64,000 nucleotides of DNA from Sphyrna mokarran. Lineage: Eukaryota. This document shows, in pieces, positions 38,782 through 64,000 of the stretch. Every line of letters begins with the position of its first letter. Position 1 is the first letter of the stretch. The notes beneath the pieces are model-generated. The model had not been told where the DNA came from and ran no database searches. It was given only the letters and a program-made list of their open reading frames with translations. The stretch is from assembly GCA_024679065.1 (NCBI GenBank), contig JAGIQG010000026.1:35960001-36024000 (forward strand), read 5' to 3'. Position numbers and translations under genes: made by a program.

Positions 38782-38784
38782 ATG
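38782..38784 (+). CDS. RPL37: RPL37 exon 1 (ATG only)
   Basis: ATG|GTGAGT donor in CpG island. Confidence 0.9.
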
Positions 38785-40641
38785 GTGAGTGAGGCAGCGG
38801 GAAGGAGGCCTGGGGACAATCCGTGTCCATCCTCTCCCGGCCGGACCGTTCACACCAGGCCGCCGCTGGGGATTAACTCTACACTCCCCCAGCTACTGCC
38901 CCGCACCGATATCCCGGGCCCTGCCTCATGAAAATGAAGTTAGGCGAAGGATGTAGGCCTTTGTCACCCCATCGCTGCAGCTCGGGGCCTGAGTGCGGCC
39001 TAGTGCCTTCTGGTAGGCAGCGATCCGCAAGGAGGATGACAATGCTCGGGTTGTGCCCCTTTCTGGGCTTACGTGACTGACTGGCGATTTCTGGTTTCCC
39101 CAGGCTGGAGGCAGTGCTCTCTGCAGGGCTGAGTGTCTTGGAGCAGGTTTGCTCTGATGTACTCGCTGCCGTTCACTTACCAATTCTCTCTTCCCCATGT
39201 CAGTGCATTATAGCCTAATAACACGATCCCGAACAAAAACACGAAATGCTGGAAATACTCAGTGCCAGGCAGCATCTGTAGCGAAGGGAGCAGGAGTTAA
39301 CCCTTTAGTTTTGACAGAAGATCACACACCTGATATACTAACTACTCTTTTCTCTGCAGCTACTGCCTAGCCAGACTGTTTCCAGCACTTTCTATTCATA
39401 TTAAGATTTCCAGCATTTGCCTTACTTTGCTTTGGTGACCAGATTCTAAACCTGGTTAGTTCTGTACAGATCTTGACCATTCTGGAGAGCATAATAGAAA
39501 AAGAACATTTAAGCTCATTTTTTTCATTTATTCATTAAGGGCCTAGATTTTCCTCCTTTCAGTTGATTTTTTTTTGTCATACTCATTAGAGTTCAAGTCT
39601 ATAATAGGGGTGTTATAACTGCCCAACTTGTCAGTGTGGAAGGCACGTTCAGGCTACTATGATCGTGATAAACACTACCATCTAAAAGGAACCTTCACAA
39701 GTATACCTAATAAAGCACGTACTTGTCTTTTGACACTTCATACATCATTGTTACAAGTACAGTATTATGGATGGAAGTAAGATTTTGGTTTCATGTTTGT
39801 CTCTGACCACTTCTGATGTACAAATTATTCTGTTGAAAGCAAATAAATTTGACTCACTCCCATAGTTGTCTGGCTCCAGGTCTATTATAAAATTATACAT
39901 AGAGCATCCATCAAATCTATTGGTTATACAAAAAACTGACCAATGTAGTCGTGTTCACAGTGTACAGGTTAGACCATATCAACCAGTTTTAAATGAAGCA
40001 TGAGAAGATGTTTCTGACATCTTCACTGACCACGGGTCACTGGCACAACACCAAAATAATAATGCAATTAAAGTTCATTCACCTGAAATATCTGTGTCTC
40101 TGCATAGCCATTGCTTGAATTGTCAAATACTTCAAGTATTTTCTGCTTTTGATTAGAAAGTAGTTTGTTGAGTATAAATATACTATTATACTGCAGCCAT
40201 CATTTGTAGCATCAGTGCAATTAAGGGACCAATCTAGTTGGCTATATGATCAAGAAATGGATAAATGACTATGCTAACAGAGTTAGATGAAATAGTTATG
40301 TATAGCATTAGCAGTGCTATAAAACAGGTTGAATGGCCTGACTGCAGCCCATTCTATGGTAGTTCTATTCTTGTGCAGCATATTCCATGGAGAAGCACCA
40401 TAAATGTGTTGCCGGGAGAGCTGTGTTTGGAGTCTTTGTCACTCGTTTTGTTCTATGCCATTCATGTTAGGAGTTTTAATATGTTAACAGCTGTTTGTTT
40501 TCATCTGGCTTGACTTGACCTTTAGGTTGGATTGGCTGGAGTTAATCGCTCTCCCATTCCTGTTCCTTAAAACGCCAGTAGGGATGGGAGGATACAAAGA
40601 GATTGGATCATTCAGAAACAGTTTGGTGATACTTTCAGTAA

Positions 40642-40821
<180 letters not shown>

Positions 40822-41882
40822 TAGGGGGGGGTAGCCATAGCCCGAAGGACCTAATACCCTTGATATAAATATGTTCTTTTTACTCTTGTTGGAATGTAAT
40901 TCTAATACCGTGGCGTGAAAGTTGTCTGTCTTTGAGCATGAGCTGTGGCATTGAGTGTTGACCAGTTCTTTGTCTGTTTCTGCAATTTGAATCTATCGTT
41001 GTTCAAATCGTGCCTGCTTCAACAGGAATCCCTGGTTTCTGGAGCCTGCCTGGTTTAAACAAATTGTGCTATTTACTTTGGATTATAAGTTTACAACTTG
41101 CAATTGTTGCGCCATTAAGGAATGGATGCAGTATCTACAAAGATTTTGTACCAGCTGAGACAAACTAATTGTACTTAGTGTCAAAGGTTTATGTAAGGTG
41201 GTATGGTTGACTGTCAGGTAAAGATAGGATTTCGTTCATTTGTGATGTCCTTTGTTCAATTGCTGAAGTTTGCTACATTTCACCTGATAGTTATAATTAG
41301 ATATTTGGATTAAGGATCAGTAGATGGCTGCCATCTTTTCTAAAATGAAATATGAGATAGGGAAATTAGTGCTTCCAGTAACCCATTGATAGCTTTGTTG
41401 CTTTAGAAGTTGAGCATTTGAAATGTTTGATGTCATTGATAGAATAATTGTAGCAGACAGATCATTTTACCAATTAGATTCATGCAGGTATTTTTCTGCA
41501 AATGAATTATTTGGTCTGATTTCACTCTTAATGGAATCCTAAACCCTCAATCTTTCCCAATCAACAACCTAATCACCTTTTAAAGGAAATTGTGTGCTCT
41601 ACTTCAGCAATGGGTACGCATTCATAACCAATCGCTGCAAACAAAAATGCTTTGTACTTATCTTCCATTTCTGCCTGATAATTTGACCAGACAAAGCAAA
41701 TTGTGGCTGTTTGACTTGAGTTCTTAAGGAATTTGAAAATCTCAATTAGATCAACCTTCATTCTAACTCCTCCTTGTCACATGTCACTTTGCTGCTTTTA
41801 ATTGTTTGACACCTGGAGTAAGCTTTGTAACTGCTGCTTGGTTATGTGGACCTGATGGACTGGGACATCTCAGGTTGGATAA

Positions 41883-42032
<150 letters not shown>

Positions 42033-42781
42033 TAAGGGATGCAGTGACAGTAGCTACTCATAATGATCATGGGAGCAGGGTAAAAGTGCTCGATCACTGA
42101 ACCAATGCATTGTGATCAAAAGTCTACTTTTCCACCAGATGAAAGATAGAAAATTGTAACAGGCTGCTAGAAAGCTCTGTTAGGAAGTTTCCCTGGGAGG
42201 AGGTAGTGTTGGAGACAGTGCATGTCCTGGATGTTGTGCGGTGATTAGGGAGCTGTATCTAGAAATGGAGATGTTGGGGGCAGGATCGCTCTAGTTGGGA
42301 TGTGTACCTGGGAAAGGGTTACGTGTCAGGGTATGTACTCCGGAAAGGGCAGTGTGTTGGGGCTTGTGTACCTGGGAAGGGGCAGTGTGTTGGGGGGGTG
42401 TACCCAGGAAAGTGCAGTGTGTTGGGGGTGTATATGTGGAAGGAGCAGTGTTTGATTTGATTTATTATTGTCACATGTATATAGTGAAAAGTATACCATT
42501 CATAGAGAAGGAAATGAGAGAGTGCAGGATGTCGTGTTATAGTCGTAGCTAGAATGGTATATCTTGGTGTGGCTGGGTCAAAATACTGACTCCGCTCTCT
42601 GAAATCTAGTTTGAATCTAACCCACTGTCGTATTTTCAATATCCAAAATCAAATTAGTTTGGACGCTTCTGGAATTCTGGAAGTATTTAGAATACCCTGT
42701 AATTCCTGCTGCCAATCAGAAAGATTGCAGGGATAATTGCACATAAGTCTATATTGCAGCCTATAGTGCATGCACAGTTAG

Positions 42782-42925
42782 AGTCATAGAATTCCTACAG
42801 TGCAAATGGAGCCATTGGGCCCACCAAGCCTGAACCGGCAATAATCCCACTGAGACACCACGTTTTTACCCGCTTTTCTCCCTGACACTAAGGAGCAATT
42901 TGCATGGCCAATCAACCTAGCCTGG
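42782..42925 (-). mobile_element. HE1-like SINE 3' fragment
   Basis: CATAGAATTCCTACAGTGCA...GCATGGCCAATCAACCTA. Confidence 0.7.
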
Positions 42926-43819
42926 ATTTTGGCATCAATTTCACTGCAACGTAGTCTTTACAAAACGTTTTAAGGCCATAAAACAGAAGGAATATATTGC
43001 AGTGCTTCATCTGATTTGACTTGGGGAATGGCCTCGATCGGGGGCACAAAGATCAACCAAAATGCCTCGAGCAACGTAGTCCAAATCTGTGATTAAAATT
43101 GGGTGTTATGAAATTCATATCTAATACTTGTGTGTTTTCTGTTTTTTAAATGTTATTCCCTCTCGTTACATTTTGTCAATTTTTCCATTCTAAATTCCTG
43201 TGTCAGTGTTCACAATGGAACTGTGTAAATGTGGCATATGATGATTGCTCTCAATGATGGTGCTGTGGTCTTGGTGTTTTTTACCATCTCAAAGTTGTGT
43301 TTATAATATAAAATCCATATAATTCGCATCTATGGAATTGGACTCAAATTTAATTTTCAAGTGACCAGGTTAGAAAGTAGGTTATAATTTGGATCGGGCT
43401 GTGCTTTTACCTATTTTAAAGCCCTTATTATTGATATACTTTCATACAAAATACTTTTGGTTAAAGGAGGAAGAACTTTGCACCCCTCAGGTCCTTGGCA
43501 TGTTCCAAAGTGCCATGATGCAAAAACTGGGGCATTTGGGAGGCTTAGGGGTTTCCTGGCAGTAGAGGCCATGGAGCTTGGATGTATAAAACTAACACCA
43601 GTGTGACTGTTGATTGGAGGGCTTAATTTCAGCATCAGTCTAGATGGATTGTGTCTGCGTGTACTAACGAGTGATGGAAGAGACAGTATTGTGAAAATAT
43701 AAAATAAATTATTGGAAGGAATGGTGCCAGGGAATCGGTGGACAGGTGGTGTTAAGTCTTATAATGAAAAAGATAGGACTAGAACAAGGAGTGGTCTGCT
43801 TAACCCAGTTGAGCTATTT

Positions 43820-44915
43820 CTTTTATTTGATGAGTTCATGGCTGATCTGTGACCTAACTCCATAAATCTGCTGTTGACCTGAATTCATTCTTACATTTGA
43901 TCCATAAAATTTATCAGTATCTGTTTAAAGAGTAACAATTGATCTGATATCAGTTGAAGTTAGAGGATGAAAGTTCCAATTTTCTACCACTCATCGATTG
44001 TCCTGAGAAGCCTGGCTCTAATTTTCAGTCTGTGGCACCTTGTGCTATATTCTCCAACAGTGAAATTAGTTTCTTTTCACTCTTACCTGTTCTTGCAATG
44101 TCTTGATCAAATCATACCTTTACCATTTAAATTCTAATTCACCATTAGTTTTTTTTAAATATCTCCTCATAATTTAATCCTTGGAATCCAGGTATCACTC
44201 TGGTTAATCCAGTCTGCACTCTATCCAAGCCAGTATCTCCTTCCTGAGATGTGTTGCCCAGCCCAGAACTGTTCACAATATTACAGGTGTGATCTACCCA
44301 GGGATTTGAATAGCTGAATTGTGATTTGAATGCTAGTTCCCTAGATGTAAAAGTCAGTATTCCATAAGCATTTTTGATTATTTTCTGTATCTGTTTAATT
44401 GCAGTTTAATGATCTTTAACCTGGAAACCTCTTTGGCCCTTCAGTGTTTAGTTTTTTATCATATGTAGTGTGCCTTGTTCTTGCACCCAAATTAGATGAC
44501 CTTGCATTTAGCTATATTCTAATTCATTTGCCAGAGTTTTGTTCATGCATTTAATCTATTAATACCTTCATAATTTTATATTTTCGTCTACACTATTTAC
44601 GATACTATCTTTGTCATCAGCAAGATAGAATTAGCAGCTTTCAGTCTCATCAACTAAGTTATTAATACATGATGAATGGGTAAGATGCAGGCACAGATGC
44701 TGGCAAAGCACCAATAGTCACAGCTAACGAATTCAAATACCCGACAACCCGTCCTCAGTATGGCCATTCTGCCAATTTTCTCACCAAGACAATAATTTGT
44801 CTTCAATTCCATGAACTTCAACTTCAGCTAGCAATCGATTATGAGCAACTAAATCAAATATCTTATGCAAGTTCATATAAATGTTATCCATAGACATTCC
44901 TCTGTCCACTACTTT
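43820..44915 (-). mobile_element. Old CR1 fragment in RPL37 intron 3
   Basis: CCCAGAACTGTTCACAATATT and TTGTCATCAGCAA (ADD) on minus strand. Confidence 0.65.
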
Positions 44916-45179
44916 GATTTTTTTATTTGAAAATATGACTAATCAGGTTTGTCAAAATTACTCAGAACTGTAGACCTTCGCTTAGTGGCAGGACAAGTAA
45001 TGGAATCTGTACTCATTGTATGAGAGGATGATTGAGGAAAAGTTAAGCTGCATTTGATCACAGATTAGATAGAGTGATTCCTGCAGAGGAGTAAAGTGGT
45101 GCTGTGAGTTTAAGAGAATGTAGTAATGTAATTAATGCATGAGATATCTATGGAGAGAATTTGTTCTTATTTAAAGATG

Positions 45180-45435
45180 ATTTATTTATTTGTCACAAGT
45201 AGGCTTATATTAATATTGCAATGAAGTTACTGTGAAAATCCCCTAGTTGTTCACAACACCTGTTCAGGTACACTGAGGGAGAATTTAGCATGGCCAATGC
45301 ACCTAGCCAGCACACGTTTGGATGATAGGAGGAAATGCATGCAGATATGGGAAGAACGTGCAAACTCTACACAGACAGTGAGCCAAGCTGGGAATTGTAC
45401 TTGGGTCTCTGTGAGGTAGAGTCCTTGCCACTGTG
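45180..45435 (-). mobile_element. HE1-like SINE
   Basis: Reverse-complement core and tail. Confidence 0.8.
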
Positions 45436-45561
45436 ACAGCACTATCTGTTGGGATTGTTCAGGTGCTTTCAGGGAGACATCCTGGGAACTTGCATTTGTT
45501 TGAAATCTTTGCTATTGATTATTATGCTGTCCTTACCGCCTCCTTGTTGTCTTGATTGTAG

Positions 45562-45631
45562 GAATGGATTCCGTGAAGGGACCACCCCGAAGCCAAGGCG
45601 TTCCACAATGGCTTCCTCCAGCACTGCATAA
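45562..45631 (+). CDS. RPL37: RPL37 exon 4
   Basis: NGFREGTTPKPRRSTMASSSTA*; the four exons total 97 aa. Confidence 0.97.
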
Positions 45632-45654
45632 AGTATCAGTGTACCTACGCAACA

Positions 45655-52579: not shown

Positions 52580-53696
52580 GTAATCCTGGAGAAAGTTTCA
52601 TGCAGGCCTCTTGTACAATGGAAAATGGGGCACATTTTTGCAGAACCATCCAGGTTTAATCTTTGCTTTCTGTCTTTCCTCTTATCCAGACAGATCTGAT
52701 CACTGATCGTGAATGGCAACAAGTTGATTTCGGACACACAAACAAGGTAAGTATTGTGGTTGGACCAGATGAAACCCATACATTAGGATACTCACTCCAT
52801 AAAAGATGAATCCCAGCTCCACACGCTTGACCCAATAAAAAAGCCTCCACCAGCAAACATTGCAGCATCAGGTACCTCAAATTCTTCCAGTGTTTACACT
52901 GATAGCGTGCTCCATGACCATGTGGGCACTTCCAGTATTTGGACCTGAGGATGCTGTTCAGCACACGCTAAAAAGCCACAGTTTTGCACATCATTACTTG
53001 CAATTATGTTGCCTGCTTTTGTTGAATGACATTCACTGCATTAATTCTGTAACTCCAATTAAATATATTAATTAATGCTCTGGATTGTCAAGTTCAGCCC
53101 CAGAGAAAAGTTTTCTAGAATTCTCAATAGTTTTGTAGAGGCCCTTCATGAGATTGTGTGTTTGAATGGGCCACGGGTCGATCTCTGGATTGACCCGGCA
53201 CAGCGAGTGTTCAGAATCAAAGACCCAAAAGACTTCAAAATGCTGAAAATTAAAAATAAAAAATCTGGGAAACAACTCCAACAGATTAGGCAACCATGAG
53301 AAAAAGAGAGAAAAACAGTCCATTATTTCATATGGTCACCGACCTGAAACGTTATCTTTGTTTTTCTCTCTCTACAGTGATTTACTTGTAAGCTACTGAG
53401 TTGTTCTTTGCAGTATTTCTTGTTTCTCTCTGAGGTTGCTCAATGTGGAGCTTTCGCTGTAGAATGTAGCTAGCTTCCCTGCAGCCTATCAGCTCCAAGA
53501 CAAGGAAGTCGCTGTCATTCTGCTTCTGTCTGGCCACAGGATTAAATTTGTCATTCCTTGCAGCATTGGACCCCCGTTACAGCCTTTACAGTTAGTCAGC
53601 TGCTGATGAAGCACAGGGAAACAATGAGATAGTGGTGATAGACATCAGATTTTACCGAATTCATCCTTCAAAGGCGTTGGATGTTAGAGAAATACG

Positions 53697-58772: not shown

Positions 58773-59052
58773 ATATACATTGATACAGTGAATGTCCAAG
58801 CTAGGAGCTGTCTCCACACTTGCTTCTATACACAGCTCTGTCTGTCACCACACTGAGTCCTAGATGCAGGCCATGTCTTCACTTACATCACTGTGTGGGT
58901 GATGTACTCAGTTCAATGTTAACCCTTTATATGTTAAACACTAAACTGCATTGAATTGTTCAAACCACCTAGATTTAGATGGTTAAACTCTAACAGTACA
59001 TTTGTGTCCTTAAGATTTGTCTCTTGCCATTTGCACCTAACTTGGTGCTTCA

Positions 59053-59405
59053 GGGTGGCACCGTGACATAGTGGTTTGCATGGTTAACCTTCAGGGTGGA
59101 AGAATAGCACAGTAGTTCATGCTGCTGTCTCATAGCACCAGGGACCCACGTTCGATTCCAGCCGTGGGCAACTGTTTTTATGGAGTTTGTAAGTCCTTAC
59201 TGTGTCAGCATGGGTTTCCTCCCACAGTTCAAAGATGTGTGTGTTAGATTGGTTGGCTATACTAAATTGCCCCTGAGTGTCCAAAGATGTGTAGGTTAGG
59301 GTAAATGCATGGAATCCAGATAAGGTGCCCTGTCAGAGAGTAGGTGCAGAATTGATGGGTTGAATGGCCCCCTTCTGCACTGAAGGATTCTAGGATTTTA
59401 TGATT
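59053..59405 (+). mobile_element. HE1-like SINE
   Basis: Head (duplicated), core and tail. Confidence 0.8.
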
Positions 59406-59531
59406 TTGTACACCACAGATAAGTGGGGTGTTGCTACAGGGAGAATATGATGACCCCAGAATCAGGCAACTCTTAAGTTTCAAAATCCTTAAGTAATGGA
59501 AAATGAGTTGATTAAATTACTGACTTTTTTG

Positions 59532-59752
59532 ACATTGAACCAACCAGGGGAAAACTGGTTCCTGGGGAAAGACCATCGGGTGAGGTACAAGATGGCTGCC
59601 ATTTATTGCTGGACTGATATCAATGACATTGGGAACAGTGTCTCCTGAAGAGGAATTCTGGGACATTCCAGATCAATAATGTCACCAAAGCAGCTTTGGA
59701 GATGGTGGGGATTGTCTACTGTGCTGCCCCTAAAGGGACAATCACCACAGAG
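59532..59752 (+). pseudogene. Decayed Ig V segment with heptamer
   Basis: With two frameshifts: TLNQPG-KTGSWGKTI-VRYKM (FR1; Cys position TAC); later KRNSGTFQINNVTKA...GIVYCAA (FR3); CACAGAG at 59746-59752; FR2/CDR2 missing. Confidence 0.55.
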
Positions 59753-59971
59753 TCAGAATTGACTCAACATTCTCTAACCTTCCAGAATTAAACTTCCCAT
59801 TTTTAACTAAAAACAAAATATAGTTCTGGTCAGAAAATTCTTTATTCTGTAATGATAACAACACTTCCCTTACTCTTGCCTTCTCCTTATATAGAGTTTA
59901 TAAAGAAGGTTGATCCAAAAATTGACCAGTCCACAAACCGTCCCCAATACTGCAAAATGAAGCGTCTTTAA

Positions 59972-60249
59972 ACAGTGACGTGTCCGACCGTTACTGAAAT
60001 GGGTGGAGCTGAAACTGAGACATTTGTATGTGTTGTAAATAAAATGAAGATATGTTGAGTTTGTCTCTGTTCTGGACAGTCCCTCTCCTTAAAATAACAT
60101 TGCACAGTTCCTGCTGGGACCCAGCTGTAAGTTATTATCACCCAGCTAACCACACTGATCACTGATTGGTGGAAACTGCCATCTCAATGCAGTTTAGCTT
60201 CAACCAATCTCCTTCAACATTTCCATGAGGTTCGATTAGCTCTCAGTGT
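59972..60249 (+). pseudogene. Decayed Ig light-chain C1 domain
   Basis: TVTCPTVTEMGGAETETFVCVVNK (P-to-C spacing as in CL), frameshift to LFWTV, ITQLTTLITDW (LTxxxxDW), Cys 60188, terminal SISSQC; polypyrimidine AG acceptor at 59893-59894. Confidence 0.6.
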
Positions 60250-60352
60250 TCTGAATCCATGAAAATAACGCATTGTATCAGTAAATCATATTCAGGAGTT
60301 AGTGCAATGGAGGTCAGTGTTTCCATAGTCAGTGGCTAGTTAATGGCAGATT

Positions 60353-60690
60353 AAAGTTAAAGTTTATTTATTAATGTCATAAATAGTTTTACTTTAACAC
60401 TGCAATGAAGTTACTGTGAAAATCCCCTGGTCGCTACATCCTGGTGCTGGTTCAGGTAGATGCAGGGAGAAGTTAGCATCACCACTGCACATAACCAGGA
60501 TATTTTTTGGTCTGTGGGAGAAAACTGGAGCACCCGGAGAAAATCCACACAGATACGGGGAGAACATGCAGACTCCACACAGACATTGACCCAAGTCAGG
60601 AATCGAACCTGTGTCCTTGGAGCTGTGAGGGTGCAGTGCTAACCACAGCTCCACCGTACAGTGCCACCCTGTGCCACACTGTGCCACCAA
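60353..60690 (-). mobile_element. HE1-like SINE
   Basis: Reverse-complement full copy. Confidence 0.85.
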
Positions 60691-61987: not shown

Positions 61988-62027
61988 ATTTGCATGCCTG
62001 TCCTTCCTGTTGTGAATGGCTCTATAA
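61988..62027 (+). promoter_or_regulatory. Ig light-chain promoter
   Basis: Octamer ATTTGCAT 61988-61995 (light-chain orientation); TATAA 62023-62027. Confidence 0.9.
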
Positions 62028-62115
62028 CTGGCTCCAATGGGCAGCTCCTGCCACACTCTGTCACACACACACACACACTCACTGAAGGGAGGCAGCGAGC
62101 TCATTGGCACAAAGG

Positions 62116-62161
62116 ATGTGGACCTGGTGTTTTTTCTGCTCTTTGGCACTGTGTCTGGGCT
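62116..62161 (+). CDS. IgL leader exon
   Basis: MWTWCFFCSLALCLG + T|GTAAGT; 46 nt, phase 1. Confidence 0.92.
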
Positions 62162-62266
62162 GTAAGTACAAACCCTGAAATCTGCTTCTCCCGCAGCAGC
62201 AGACGGGGGACTTGGAAACACTTTCAGACAGTCAATTTATAACGTTTAATCTCTGCTTTCTTACAG

Positions 62267-62593
62267 ATGGACAATCTCAGACTCTGACTCAGCCTCCAGA
62301 CGTGACTGTGAACCCGGGAAACACGGCCACACTCGACTGTAACATCGGAACAGATGATGGCTATACTGTGTATTGGTACAAGCAGACCCCAGGAGCAGCT
62401 CCTCAGTGGGTCCTCTATTATTATTATTCTCACAATGCCCCCACCTATGGTCCTGGGTTTAGTAGCGACCGTTTCACATCGACAGCCAACAGCGGCCACA
62501 ACATTTACAAGTTAATCATAAAGAACGTGGAGGTGAATGATGCTGCCGTCTATTACTGTGGAAAGTGGTTTTCAAGCAGCAGCAGCTATGTGT
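62267..62593 (+). CDS. IgL V segment, probably sigma isotype
   Basis: QTLTQPPDVTVNPGNTATLDC..WYKQTPGAAPQWVL..YGPGFSSDRF..YKLIIKNVEVNDAAVYYC; long CDR2 and YGxGFSS motif typical of sigma/L2; open frame. Confidence 0.93.
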
Positions 62594-62621
62594 CACAGTG
62601 ACAGGAGGTAAAACAAAAACT
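62594..62621 (+). promoter_or_regulatory. 12-RSS of V
   Basis: CACAGTG-12 nt-ACAAAAACT. Confidence 0.97.
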
Positions 62622-62934
62622 GGCAACAGTAAATGTTATACAATTAATAACTGTGTGTTCGGTAAAACATTGTTAAGTTTTACATTTCATCAAATCACTT
62701 TAATTTCGTCCTTTATGCAATATTTTCCAACAAATATAATAATAATTGATAACAATCTGAATCTCACTACTCAGTATTGAGCGTTAATGATATTTTACTG
62801 TCAGTGTGTGTGTGTTACTGTGAGTTCATTCCTTACTGTCCCATACCAGCAGGAACACTGGGAATACATGAAGCCTGATTAATGCCGGACTGGAGAATCT
62901 GAAATGTGTTTTCTGTCTGATTTCCAGGGTCTGC

Positions 62935-62973
62935 GATAACTGTGTGGACTGAATCCTAAAACATCACACTGTG
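62935..62973 (-). promoter_or_regulatory. 23-RSS of J (degenerate nonamer)
   Basis: CACTGTG 62967-62973 is consensus; the nonamer position holds GATAACTGT versus GGTTTTTGT. Confidence 0.75.
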
Positions 62974-63010
62974 TGGGTGTTCGGCCAAGGGACCAAACTC
63001 TTTGTCGCAG
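62974..63010 (+). CDS. IgL J segment
   Basis: WVFGQGTKLFVA + G|GTAAGT. Confidence 0.96.
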
Positions 63011-63482
63011 GTAAGTGGCTGGAAATCCCCTCCTCTAGAAACTAACTGTGTGAGTTTAGACATTTAGAAATGAATGAATAATTCAAACTCAGTTATTTCT
63101 TAGCACCTAGGAGTTAAATGTTAATTTGACAGTGAAAATGCAAATACCATGTGTTGTGTCCAGCACTAGACTGATTAATTAGAAAGACAGTAATAATTAT
63201 TAGTGCAGTATATCTGAATATTGCTTTCTGACACTGTCTCTGAATAATGATGCTGCTGGATATTCTATGAATATATTCATATTCTTTCTATGAAGAAGTG
63301 CTCTGACTTTCTGCCTTCATTTCTGATCTTCCATATGGGTATCTATATTTTAAATAGTTGGTGCAGATAGAGTTTTGATCGATGGGTGTTACAGTTTTGT
63401 CAATCATTCATAGTGGGCAGTGCTGGGGAAAGTGTGAAGTTGTGATTTTCTCTCCTGGTTCAGCTGTTTTGCTGATGAACCA

Positions 63483-64000
63483 GACTTTAGTAAGGTGTTT
63501 GATAAGGTGGCCCATGGAAGATTTCTGCAGAAAATGCAGATATATGGGATAGAGGGTGATTTAGCTAATTGGATTAGGAATTGGCTAGCAGATAGAAGAC
63601 AGAGGGTGGTGGTTGATGGGAGATATTCATCGTGGAGTTCGGTGACAAGTGGTGTACCTCAGGGGTCTGTTTTGGGGCCCCTGCTGTTTGTAATTTTTAT
63701 AAATGATCTGGATGAGGGTATTGAGGGATGGATTAGTAAATTTGCAGATGACACTAAAGTCGGTGGAGTGGTAGATAGTGAAGAGGGGTGTTATAGTTTG
63801 CAGAGAGACTTGGACAAGTTGCAGAGCTGGGCCGAGAGGTGGCAAATGGAGTTTAATGTGGAAAAGTGTGAGGTAATGCACTTTGGCAGGAATAATAAAT
63901 GTGTAGAGTATAGGGCTAATGGTAGGATTCTTAATAGTGTTGATGAACAGAGGGATCTTGGTGTATATGTGCATAGATCCCTGAAAGTAGGCAGTCAAGT
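63483..64000 (+). mobile_element. 5'-truncated CR1 LINE with uninterrupted RT frame, in the J-C intron
   Basis: DFSKVFDKV..SGVPQGSVLGPLLF..KFADDTK..WQMEFNVEKC..RDLGVYV, no stops to the window end. Confidence 0.95.

Follow-up and report, generated by a model that had tools for sequence, protein, structure and literature searches.

A probable dead immunoglobulin light-chain cluster upstream of a sigma gene in Sphyrna mokarran

The DNA upstream of an immunoglobulin light-chain (IgL) sigma gene of Sphyrna mokarran holds what is very probably (about 0.85) an unprocessed light-chain cluster, of whichever isotype, that is no longer functional. The most likely source, at about even odds, is an old sigma duplicate from which the J has gone, since the constant (C) piece leans to sigma, one register of the variable (V) piece aligns with the V of the neighbouring sigma gene, and the genomic context points in the same direction; against this source, the protein-level models favour a lambda-type V (5.8 bits for the best lambda subfamily vs 2.0 for sigma). 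Antibody loci commonly contain light-chain pseudoclusters of this kind, and erosion has gone too far here for the isotype to be certain. The first-pass annotation of this DNA had proposed, among other origins, a decayed Ig cluster of a different or ancestral isotype. A decayed cluster is supported, with a significant C1 5' half and a marginal V, and another isotype is the less likely source, the C piece leaning to sigma. An ordinary duplicate of the adjacent gene, which that annotation had set against its own proposal, is now the single most likely reading, although unproven.

The window (the whole stretch of 64,000 nucleotides that was analysed) was studied with frameshift-aware aligners and forward models, the references being 45 sigma and 108 chondrichthyan lambda chains. 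The sigma set came from 55 rows (P0002-P0056); left out were one row, five truncated or odd models and, of the remaining 49, the 4 without a J motif. The lambda set came from 114 rows (P0057-P0170), the bird row being kept out of the profiles and 5 rows having no J motif. Scores were compared with two nulls, dinucleotide shuffles and tiles of equal size cut from both strands of the remaining window sequence; p values of 0.01-0.05 are to be taken as weak, because the region was picked post hoc and tested with many models. A neutral-decay scan gave peaks of 40-55 bits at 38.6-39.1 kb, on both strands and with every profile; these were rejected as Ig, being the GC-rich CpG island at the start of RPL37, and the later models were therefore composition-corrected. 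The coordinates of the features are collected in Table 1.

Table 1. Features of the light-chain relic, of the neighbouring sigma unit and of the upstream marker gene, in window coordinates.
Feature	Position	Strand	Basis or remark
RPL37	38782-45640	+	upstream of relic
Possible promoter/5'UTR remnant (borderline)	58826-58856	+	aligns to neighbour 62017-62085
Possible leader exon remnant	58864-58903	+	13 codons (the 13th a stop) + 1 nt, then GT at 58904
Interspersed repeat inside relic, ~300 nt	59107-59405	+	between leader-like and V-like parts
V relic, register A (sigma-like)	59410-59640	+	nucleotide pair-HMM to neighbour V
V relic, register B (lambda-like; 3' end as in the first-pass annotation)	59440-59752	+	best of 13 lambda subfamily profiles
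Pyrimidine tract with AG (acceptor-like)	59866-59894	+	by sequence; 65 nt before first alignable C residue
C1 relic, 5' half (strands A-C)	59959-60081	+	sole clearly significant relic part
Possible C1 3' half (LTTLITDW, SSQC)	60082-60255	+	collinear with 5' half
IgL sigma unit (downstream neighbour of relic)	62116-63009	+	V-set match, sigma similarity, RSS, J
Neighbour leader	62116-62161	+	15 codons + 1 nt
Neighbour V exon	62267-62593	+	V-set E=1.7e-19
Neighbour RSS12	62594-62621	+	RSS scan
Neighbour J	62974-63009	+	sequence

The 5' half of the C1 relic is the part that clearly exceeds chance. Compared with 8 sigma C sequences, it scored a mean of 45 vs 26.7 +/- 2.8 in shuffles, 0/100 of which reached it. 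With each of the sigma, lambda and pooled profiles it is the top C peak of the 128 kb formed by both strands of the window (24.5, 22.4 and 26.8 bits, the runner-up peaks having 20.5, 21.5 and 22.4), and it was equalled or exceeded by 0/269 tiles with the sigma profile and by 1/269 with the lambda profile. When the two halves were scored separately, 0/300 shuffles reached the score of the 5' half under four profiles, whereas the 3' half was at chance level, its score being reached by 104-199 of 300. The C1 motifs pointed out in the first-pass annotation are indeed present at 59972-60250, those of the 5' half above chance and those of the 3' half (LTxxxxDW, the Cys and SSQC) at chance. No other C1 peak exceeded the background near the relic in the scan with the three profiles. 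The C1 relic, which lies on the same strand as the sigma gene and 2 kb upstream of it, contains stops and frameshifts and shows at least 24-25 changes in 78 nt with respect to the sigma consensus.

A chance similarity, in which an AT-rich intergenic stretch holds a lucky C1-like peak of 27-40 residues and the rest is pattern-finding, would agree with several of these searches. The margin of the 5' half over the next window peak is just 1-4 bits, single-frame hmmsearch gave it E=0.33, and in the neutral-decay scan it ranked from 4th to beyond the top 8, outranked mostly by GC-rich peaks. Pfam returned 0 families for 6/6 relic inputs, PDB 0 matches at E<=10 for 3/3 relic queries and Rfam 0 in the window; blastn/tblastn with the neighbour gave no relic match above noise, and the relic frame holding three pieces had 0 matches at E<=0.001 among 1.84 billion representatives. 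The 3' half of C1, the J and the leader are also non-significant. Nevertheless, such a coincidence is improbable, as it would have to put the peak that three profiles rank first in 128 kb at 2 kb from a genuine IgL gene and on its strand, with 0/905 shuffles doing as well and with two FR3-plus-heptamer sites, among the top non-gene sites, no more than 350 nt upstream. The comparison of the Ig scores with shuffled controls, by which the first-pass annotation had proposed to be judged, was thus significant for the C1 5' half, marginal for V, and at chance for J and the C 3' half.

Judged from its sequence, the C piece leans to sigma. Its single-sequence mean was 10.0 bits with the 45 sigma chains vs 5.4 bits with the 108 lambda chains, and maximum likelihood trees put it on the sigma side, the lambda clade having a bootstrap of 98-99, on a very long branch of 2.3-2.4 substitutions per site. 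These trees comprised 26-33 aligned residues of the piece and up to 15 sigma, 18 lambda and 1 bird C sequences, without kappa, sigma-2 or lambda-2, for which three homologue searches returned no C sequences. Over 65 placements, the weights were 0.81-0.88 for sigma, 0.05-0.07 for the stem and 0.07-0.12 for lambda, and the AU test rejected no placement (p 0.60-0.72 for the stem, up to 0.26-0.37 for lambda), the stem being within 0.03-0.4 log units of the best. The separate C phylogeny that had been suggested as a check therefore places the C piece with sigma and leaves lambda and stem unrejected. The small lambda weight counts against a lambda origin; in its favour, the C profile of one lambda subfamily lies no more than 0.7-1.5 bits from sigma, and when V and C are scored together the lambda chain P0158 is the best individual reference, with 16.7 bits vs 14.5 for the best sigma chain.

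The V relic appears marginal as an Ig V, and it can be read in two registers, which overlap and compete, so that at most one is right over 59530-59640. Register A has FR2 near 59427-59480, the end of FR3 at 59582-59613 and a heptamer-like AACAGTG at 59634-59640, and the V DNA of the neighbour aligns with it collinearly from FR2 to FR3. With the nucleotide pair-HMM, 0/150 shuffles and 1-2/394 tiles reached its score (0/100 shuffles and 1/197 tiles in a second test), the absolute score being about 2 bits and the limits having been chosen after viewing the alignment. Codon models gave weak results for this register (9/287 and 24/287; 57/273 tiles; 40/273 tiles), and the sigma V profiles were non-significant (57/273 tiles; 19/137).

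Register B runs from an AG at 59438-59439 through CDR2-FR3 (59586-59719) to a Cys at 59720-59722 and to CACAGAG at 59746-59752. By eye, a candidate Cys23 is found as TGA at 59521 and a Trp at 59563, in a 306-nt exon counted from the AG at 59439, and the spacing of 14 codons from TGA to Trp is that of P0158. These 5' landmarks are better than the 5' register of the first-pass annotation, whose words TLNQPG, KTGSWGKTI and VRYKM are present at 59532-59594 in different frames; KRNSGTFQINNVTKA..GIVYCAA is present at 59648-59728. The family-wide lambda V profile was non-significant on the relic (52/200 shuffles), and the best of 13 lambda subfamily profiles was marginal (44/1569 shuffles; 5/287; 7/273 tiles; in a further test, 1/80 shuffles and 4/137 tiles), with p about 0.01-0.03. 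About 21/46 positions, counted by eye, match the P0158 subfamily with three frameshifts, and the register resembles the FR3 of the P0158, P0132 and P0088 subfamilies. As for the claim of lambda-type or VpreB-like V frameworks, the lambda lean was reproduced, yet it is weak (5.8 vs 2.0 bits) and the rival sigma register matches the neighbour DNA; a VpreB-like origin is unlikely, VpreB being reported as a eutherian innovation (PMC9614664).

Register B supports a serious rival to the sigma duplicate, possible although on the unlikely side, namely that a stray lambda (type II) cluster with germline-joined V and J came to lie beside the sigma gene and then decayed. Since all shark lambda genes are germline-joined (PMC5192425, PMC4279169), the compact layout would be obtained without a deletion: neither an RSS nor a separate J would be expected, as in type II/NS3 genes, and the VJ-C intron would be short, occupying 59752-59894. 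The four tests with p about 0.01-0.03, the FR3 likeness to the P0158 subfamily, the P0158-like codon spacing, the 306 nt from acceptor to CACAGAG and a KGT that follows YCAAP all agree with this. However, the KGT is about 7 codons too near the Cys for a J, no FGxG J was found above chance (213/500 shuffles), the family-wide V profile was non-significant, and the C piece leans to sigma. Moreover, in 16/16 species with chromosome-scale contigs for both, lambda rows and sigma rows were on separate contigs, a count made on the longest contig per cluster among the matches listed (120 of 124) and without two species whose lambda rows sit only on small scaffolds.

A heptamer-like word follows each of the two candidate V Cys sites at a distance of 22-23 nt (59604-59640 and 59717-59752), and in a scan of the window for FR3 plus heptamer the two sites, which are about 112 nt apart and within 350 nt upstream of the C1 relic, are among the top non-gene sites. 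Their mutual similarity is at chance level. A tandem duplication of the V end with a period of about 111 nt was tried and rejected, no signal being obtained (693/1000 shuffles), and FR1 searched for across the repeat gave no signal either (225-249/300 shuffles).

Upstream of V, the letters CTATA..CAGCTC..TCTGTCAC..CACTGA reported in the first-pass annotation are present at about 58826-58856, but their resemblance to the TATA/5'UTR of the intact gene is just borderline against the nulls: 27/1000 shuffles and 6/1415 tiles, 73/1000 and 27/1415 once the CA run was collapsed, and 3/100 shuffles and 10/199 tiles with the pair-HMM. No exact match to the neighbour octamer (61988) was found upstream of the relic. 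The leader profile test was non-significant (28/500 shuffles); the candidate leader ends in phase 1, the same as the neighbour leader, and is followed by a candidate intron of 111 nt, the neighbour intron having 105 nt. A repeat which the first-pass annotation had overlooked lies between the leader-like part and the V-like part. It is covered by up to 13 other window copies, mostly with 67-86% identity, is presumably a tRNA-derived SINE, and by eye may have a degenerate head from near 59054; in the repeat-free tests, 59054-59405 was removed, the first 53 nt of this cut having been set by eye.

Scanning for RSS and octamer used their consensus words. The heptamer CACAGAG claimed at first is real as a word and does not form a recognisable RSS, as it has no nonamer (at least 4/9 mismatches with any spacer of 10-25 nt); no RSS within the relic passed the scan. 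The earlier statement that no RSS-flanked J is evident was confirmed, J scores in the relic being at chance level (213-227/500 shuffles: 213 in the lambda-type test, 227 in the sigma-type test). No similarity was found between the relic and the neighbour J (139-142/150 shuffles higher), nor with the neighbour V-J spacer and J together (137-143/150 higher). What had been placed as an acceptor after CACAGAG is an acceptor-like pyrimidine tract with its AG ending at 59894. There is no open frame across V and C of the relic, stops being present in all three frames and several frameshifts being required.

The short V-to-C distance and the missing nonamer would also suit a retrocopy of a rearranged light-chain mRNA, one of the origins first offered. 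This is now disfavoured, and highly improbable, given the intron-like sequence between leader, V and C: Cys and C are about 160 nt further apart than they would be in a sigma chain after splicing, the acceptor-like tract lying in between, and a leader-intron-like segment lies upstream. No poly(A) is seen, the longest A run in 60201-60500 being 4, although old tails can erode, and only coincidence would have brought a retrocopy next to a sigma gene.

If the relic is a sigma duplicate, a sigma cluster would have been duplicated in tandem long ago, and its upstream copy, with the arrangement leader-intron-V-RSS-J-intron-C, would have been inactivated and left to neutral decay. The repeat would have been inserted into the dead copy, and a deletion would have taken the J plus most of the spacer and of the intron, which would account for the short V-to-C distance; this deletion must be assumed, since V-J spacer and J are unlike those of the neighbour. 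The relic would today give no protein product and take no part in recombination. Tandem sigma copies are common, with 7 Pristis rows on one contig and 8 Mobula birostris rows on one contig, and clusters of the same isotype are reported to group together (PMC12227049). The relic resembles the sigma minicluster (type IV) in being adjacent to a sigma unit on the same strand, in its C scoring best with sigma, in the alignment of register A to the neighbour V DNA and in the leader-intron lengths; it differs in having no open frame, nonamer or J, and in the distance from V Cys to C, about 240-350 nt in the relic and over 1.4 kb in the neighbour sigma.

Nurse shark has known light-chain pseudoclusters, namely a fourth sigma-2 locus and NS4 pseudogenes (PMC5192425, PMC2193156), and gar has C-lambda and V-kappa/C-kappa pseudogenes (PMC5985310); as here, dead units are found beside working ones or apart from them. 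The relic, with its at least 24-25 changes in 78 nt, is far more decayed than the gar C pseudogene, which is described as having one frameshift. A literature search over titles and abstract openings, with most subscription papers and supplementary locus tables outside it, found no such relic and no linkage of RPL37 and sigma.

The V leaning to lambda and the C leaning to sigma would be explained if the relic were a fossil of some other lineage, that is, kappa, sigma-2, lambda-2 (an isotype so far missing from sharks) or a VJ-C1 gene of the non-rearranging kind, which is unlikely. In line with this, the stem placement of the C piece is almost as good as the best (0.03-0.4 log units), lambda-2 has been argued to be ancestral and lost in cartilaginous fish (PMC5985310), and non-rearranging antigen-receptor genes exist in sharks (PMC12227049). 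Nevertheless, a long branch on 26-33 residues drifts stemward by itself. Furthermore, the search among 1.84 billion representatives, which found nothing, recovered 40/50 simulated relatives at 60% identity and 15/50 at 50%, so that close intact relatives are unlikely, distant ones being still possible, and among the matches listed for a profile including the relic frame (120 of 124) all were sigma or lambda chains. Teleost kappa-like V repeats of P0001 gave scores of at most 32 with the relic, a figure that stands without a null comparison. UrIg/UrIg2, compared by description, is similar as a compact single-exon VJ plus C1 of sharks without RSS; it has three or more C1 domains (PMC12227049), where the relic has one C1 peak. 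VpreB/lambda5, also compared by description, shares non-rearranging V-like or J-C-like parts, but is reported as eutherian (PMC9614664) and as not found in fish (PMC5192425). That the relic was a compact, light-chain-like gene of non-sigma origin (lambda-2, an ancestral lambda in its original place or a non-rearranging VJ-C1 whose V is lambda-like and whose C is sigma-like) is equally doubtful, and the suggestion that such a gene may be intact in other species gained no support from the representatives.

As a dead sigma duplicate, the relic would add a further example of the birth and death of antibody clusters in sharks, with annotation value only. A non-sigma origin, if true, would give physical evidence on the first linkage of the light-chain isotypes and would bear on whether sharks formerly had lambda-2, a fifth isotype proposed as lost (PMC5985310); a compact non-sigma gene would imply that sigma and lambda were linked beside RPL37 in ancient times, and such a gene might persist intact in a chimaera, a ray or a squalomorph shark. 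RPL37 can be used as a synteny marker to locate the RPL37-to-sigma interval in other genomes.

The neighbouring sigma unit has a V with 80% identity to horn shark sigma and 78% to nurse shark sigma, its C exon being outside the window, past the 3' end. The heptamer of its J, at 62967, has a poor nonamer at 23 nt (4/9 mismatches). A better nonamer, with 2 mismatches, is found 50 nt from this heptamer and 21 nt before a second heptamer-like word, at 62938. An insertion or duplication of about 27-29 nt in 62908-62973 may have damaged this J RSS, and the neighbour cluster may consequently rearrange poorly. Within the sigma J-C intron, a LINE reverse-transcriptase fragment (RVT_1, E=3.4e-22) occupies 63438-63998 and is open to the window end. 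The sigma model P0052 of Cetorhinus maximus, which has no FR3, CDR3 or J and stops early in C, is possibly another decaying sigma copy. RPL37 itself has an ATG-only first exon (38782-38784) in the CpG island and others near 40667, 41947-42031 and 45563. Between this gene and the Ig locus, a candidate exon of 57 nt at 52690-52746, with no Pfam or PDB match, has good splice signals and an open frame, and may be part of a further gene.
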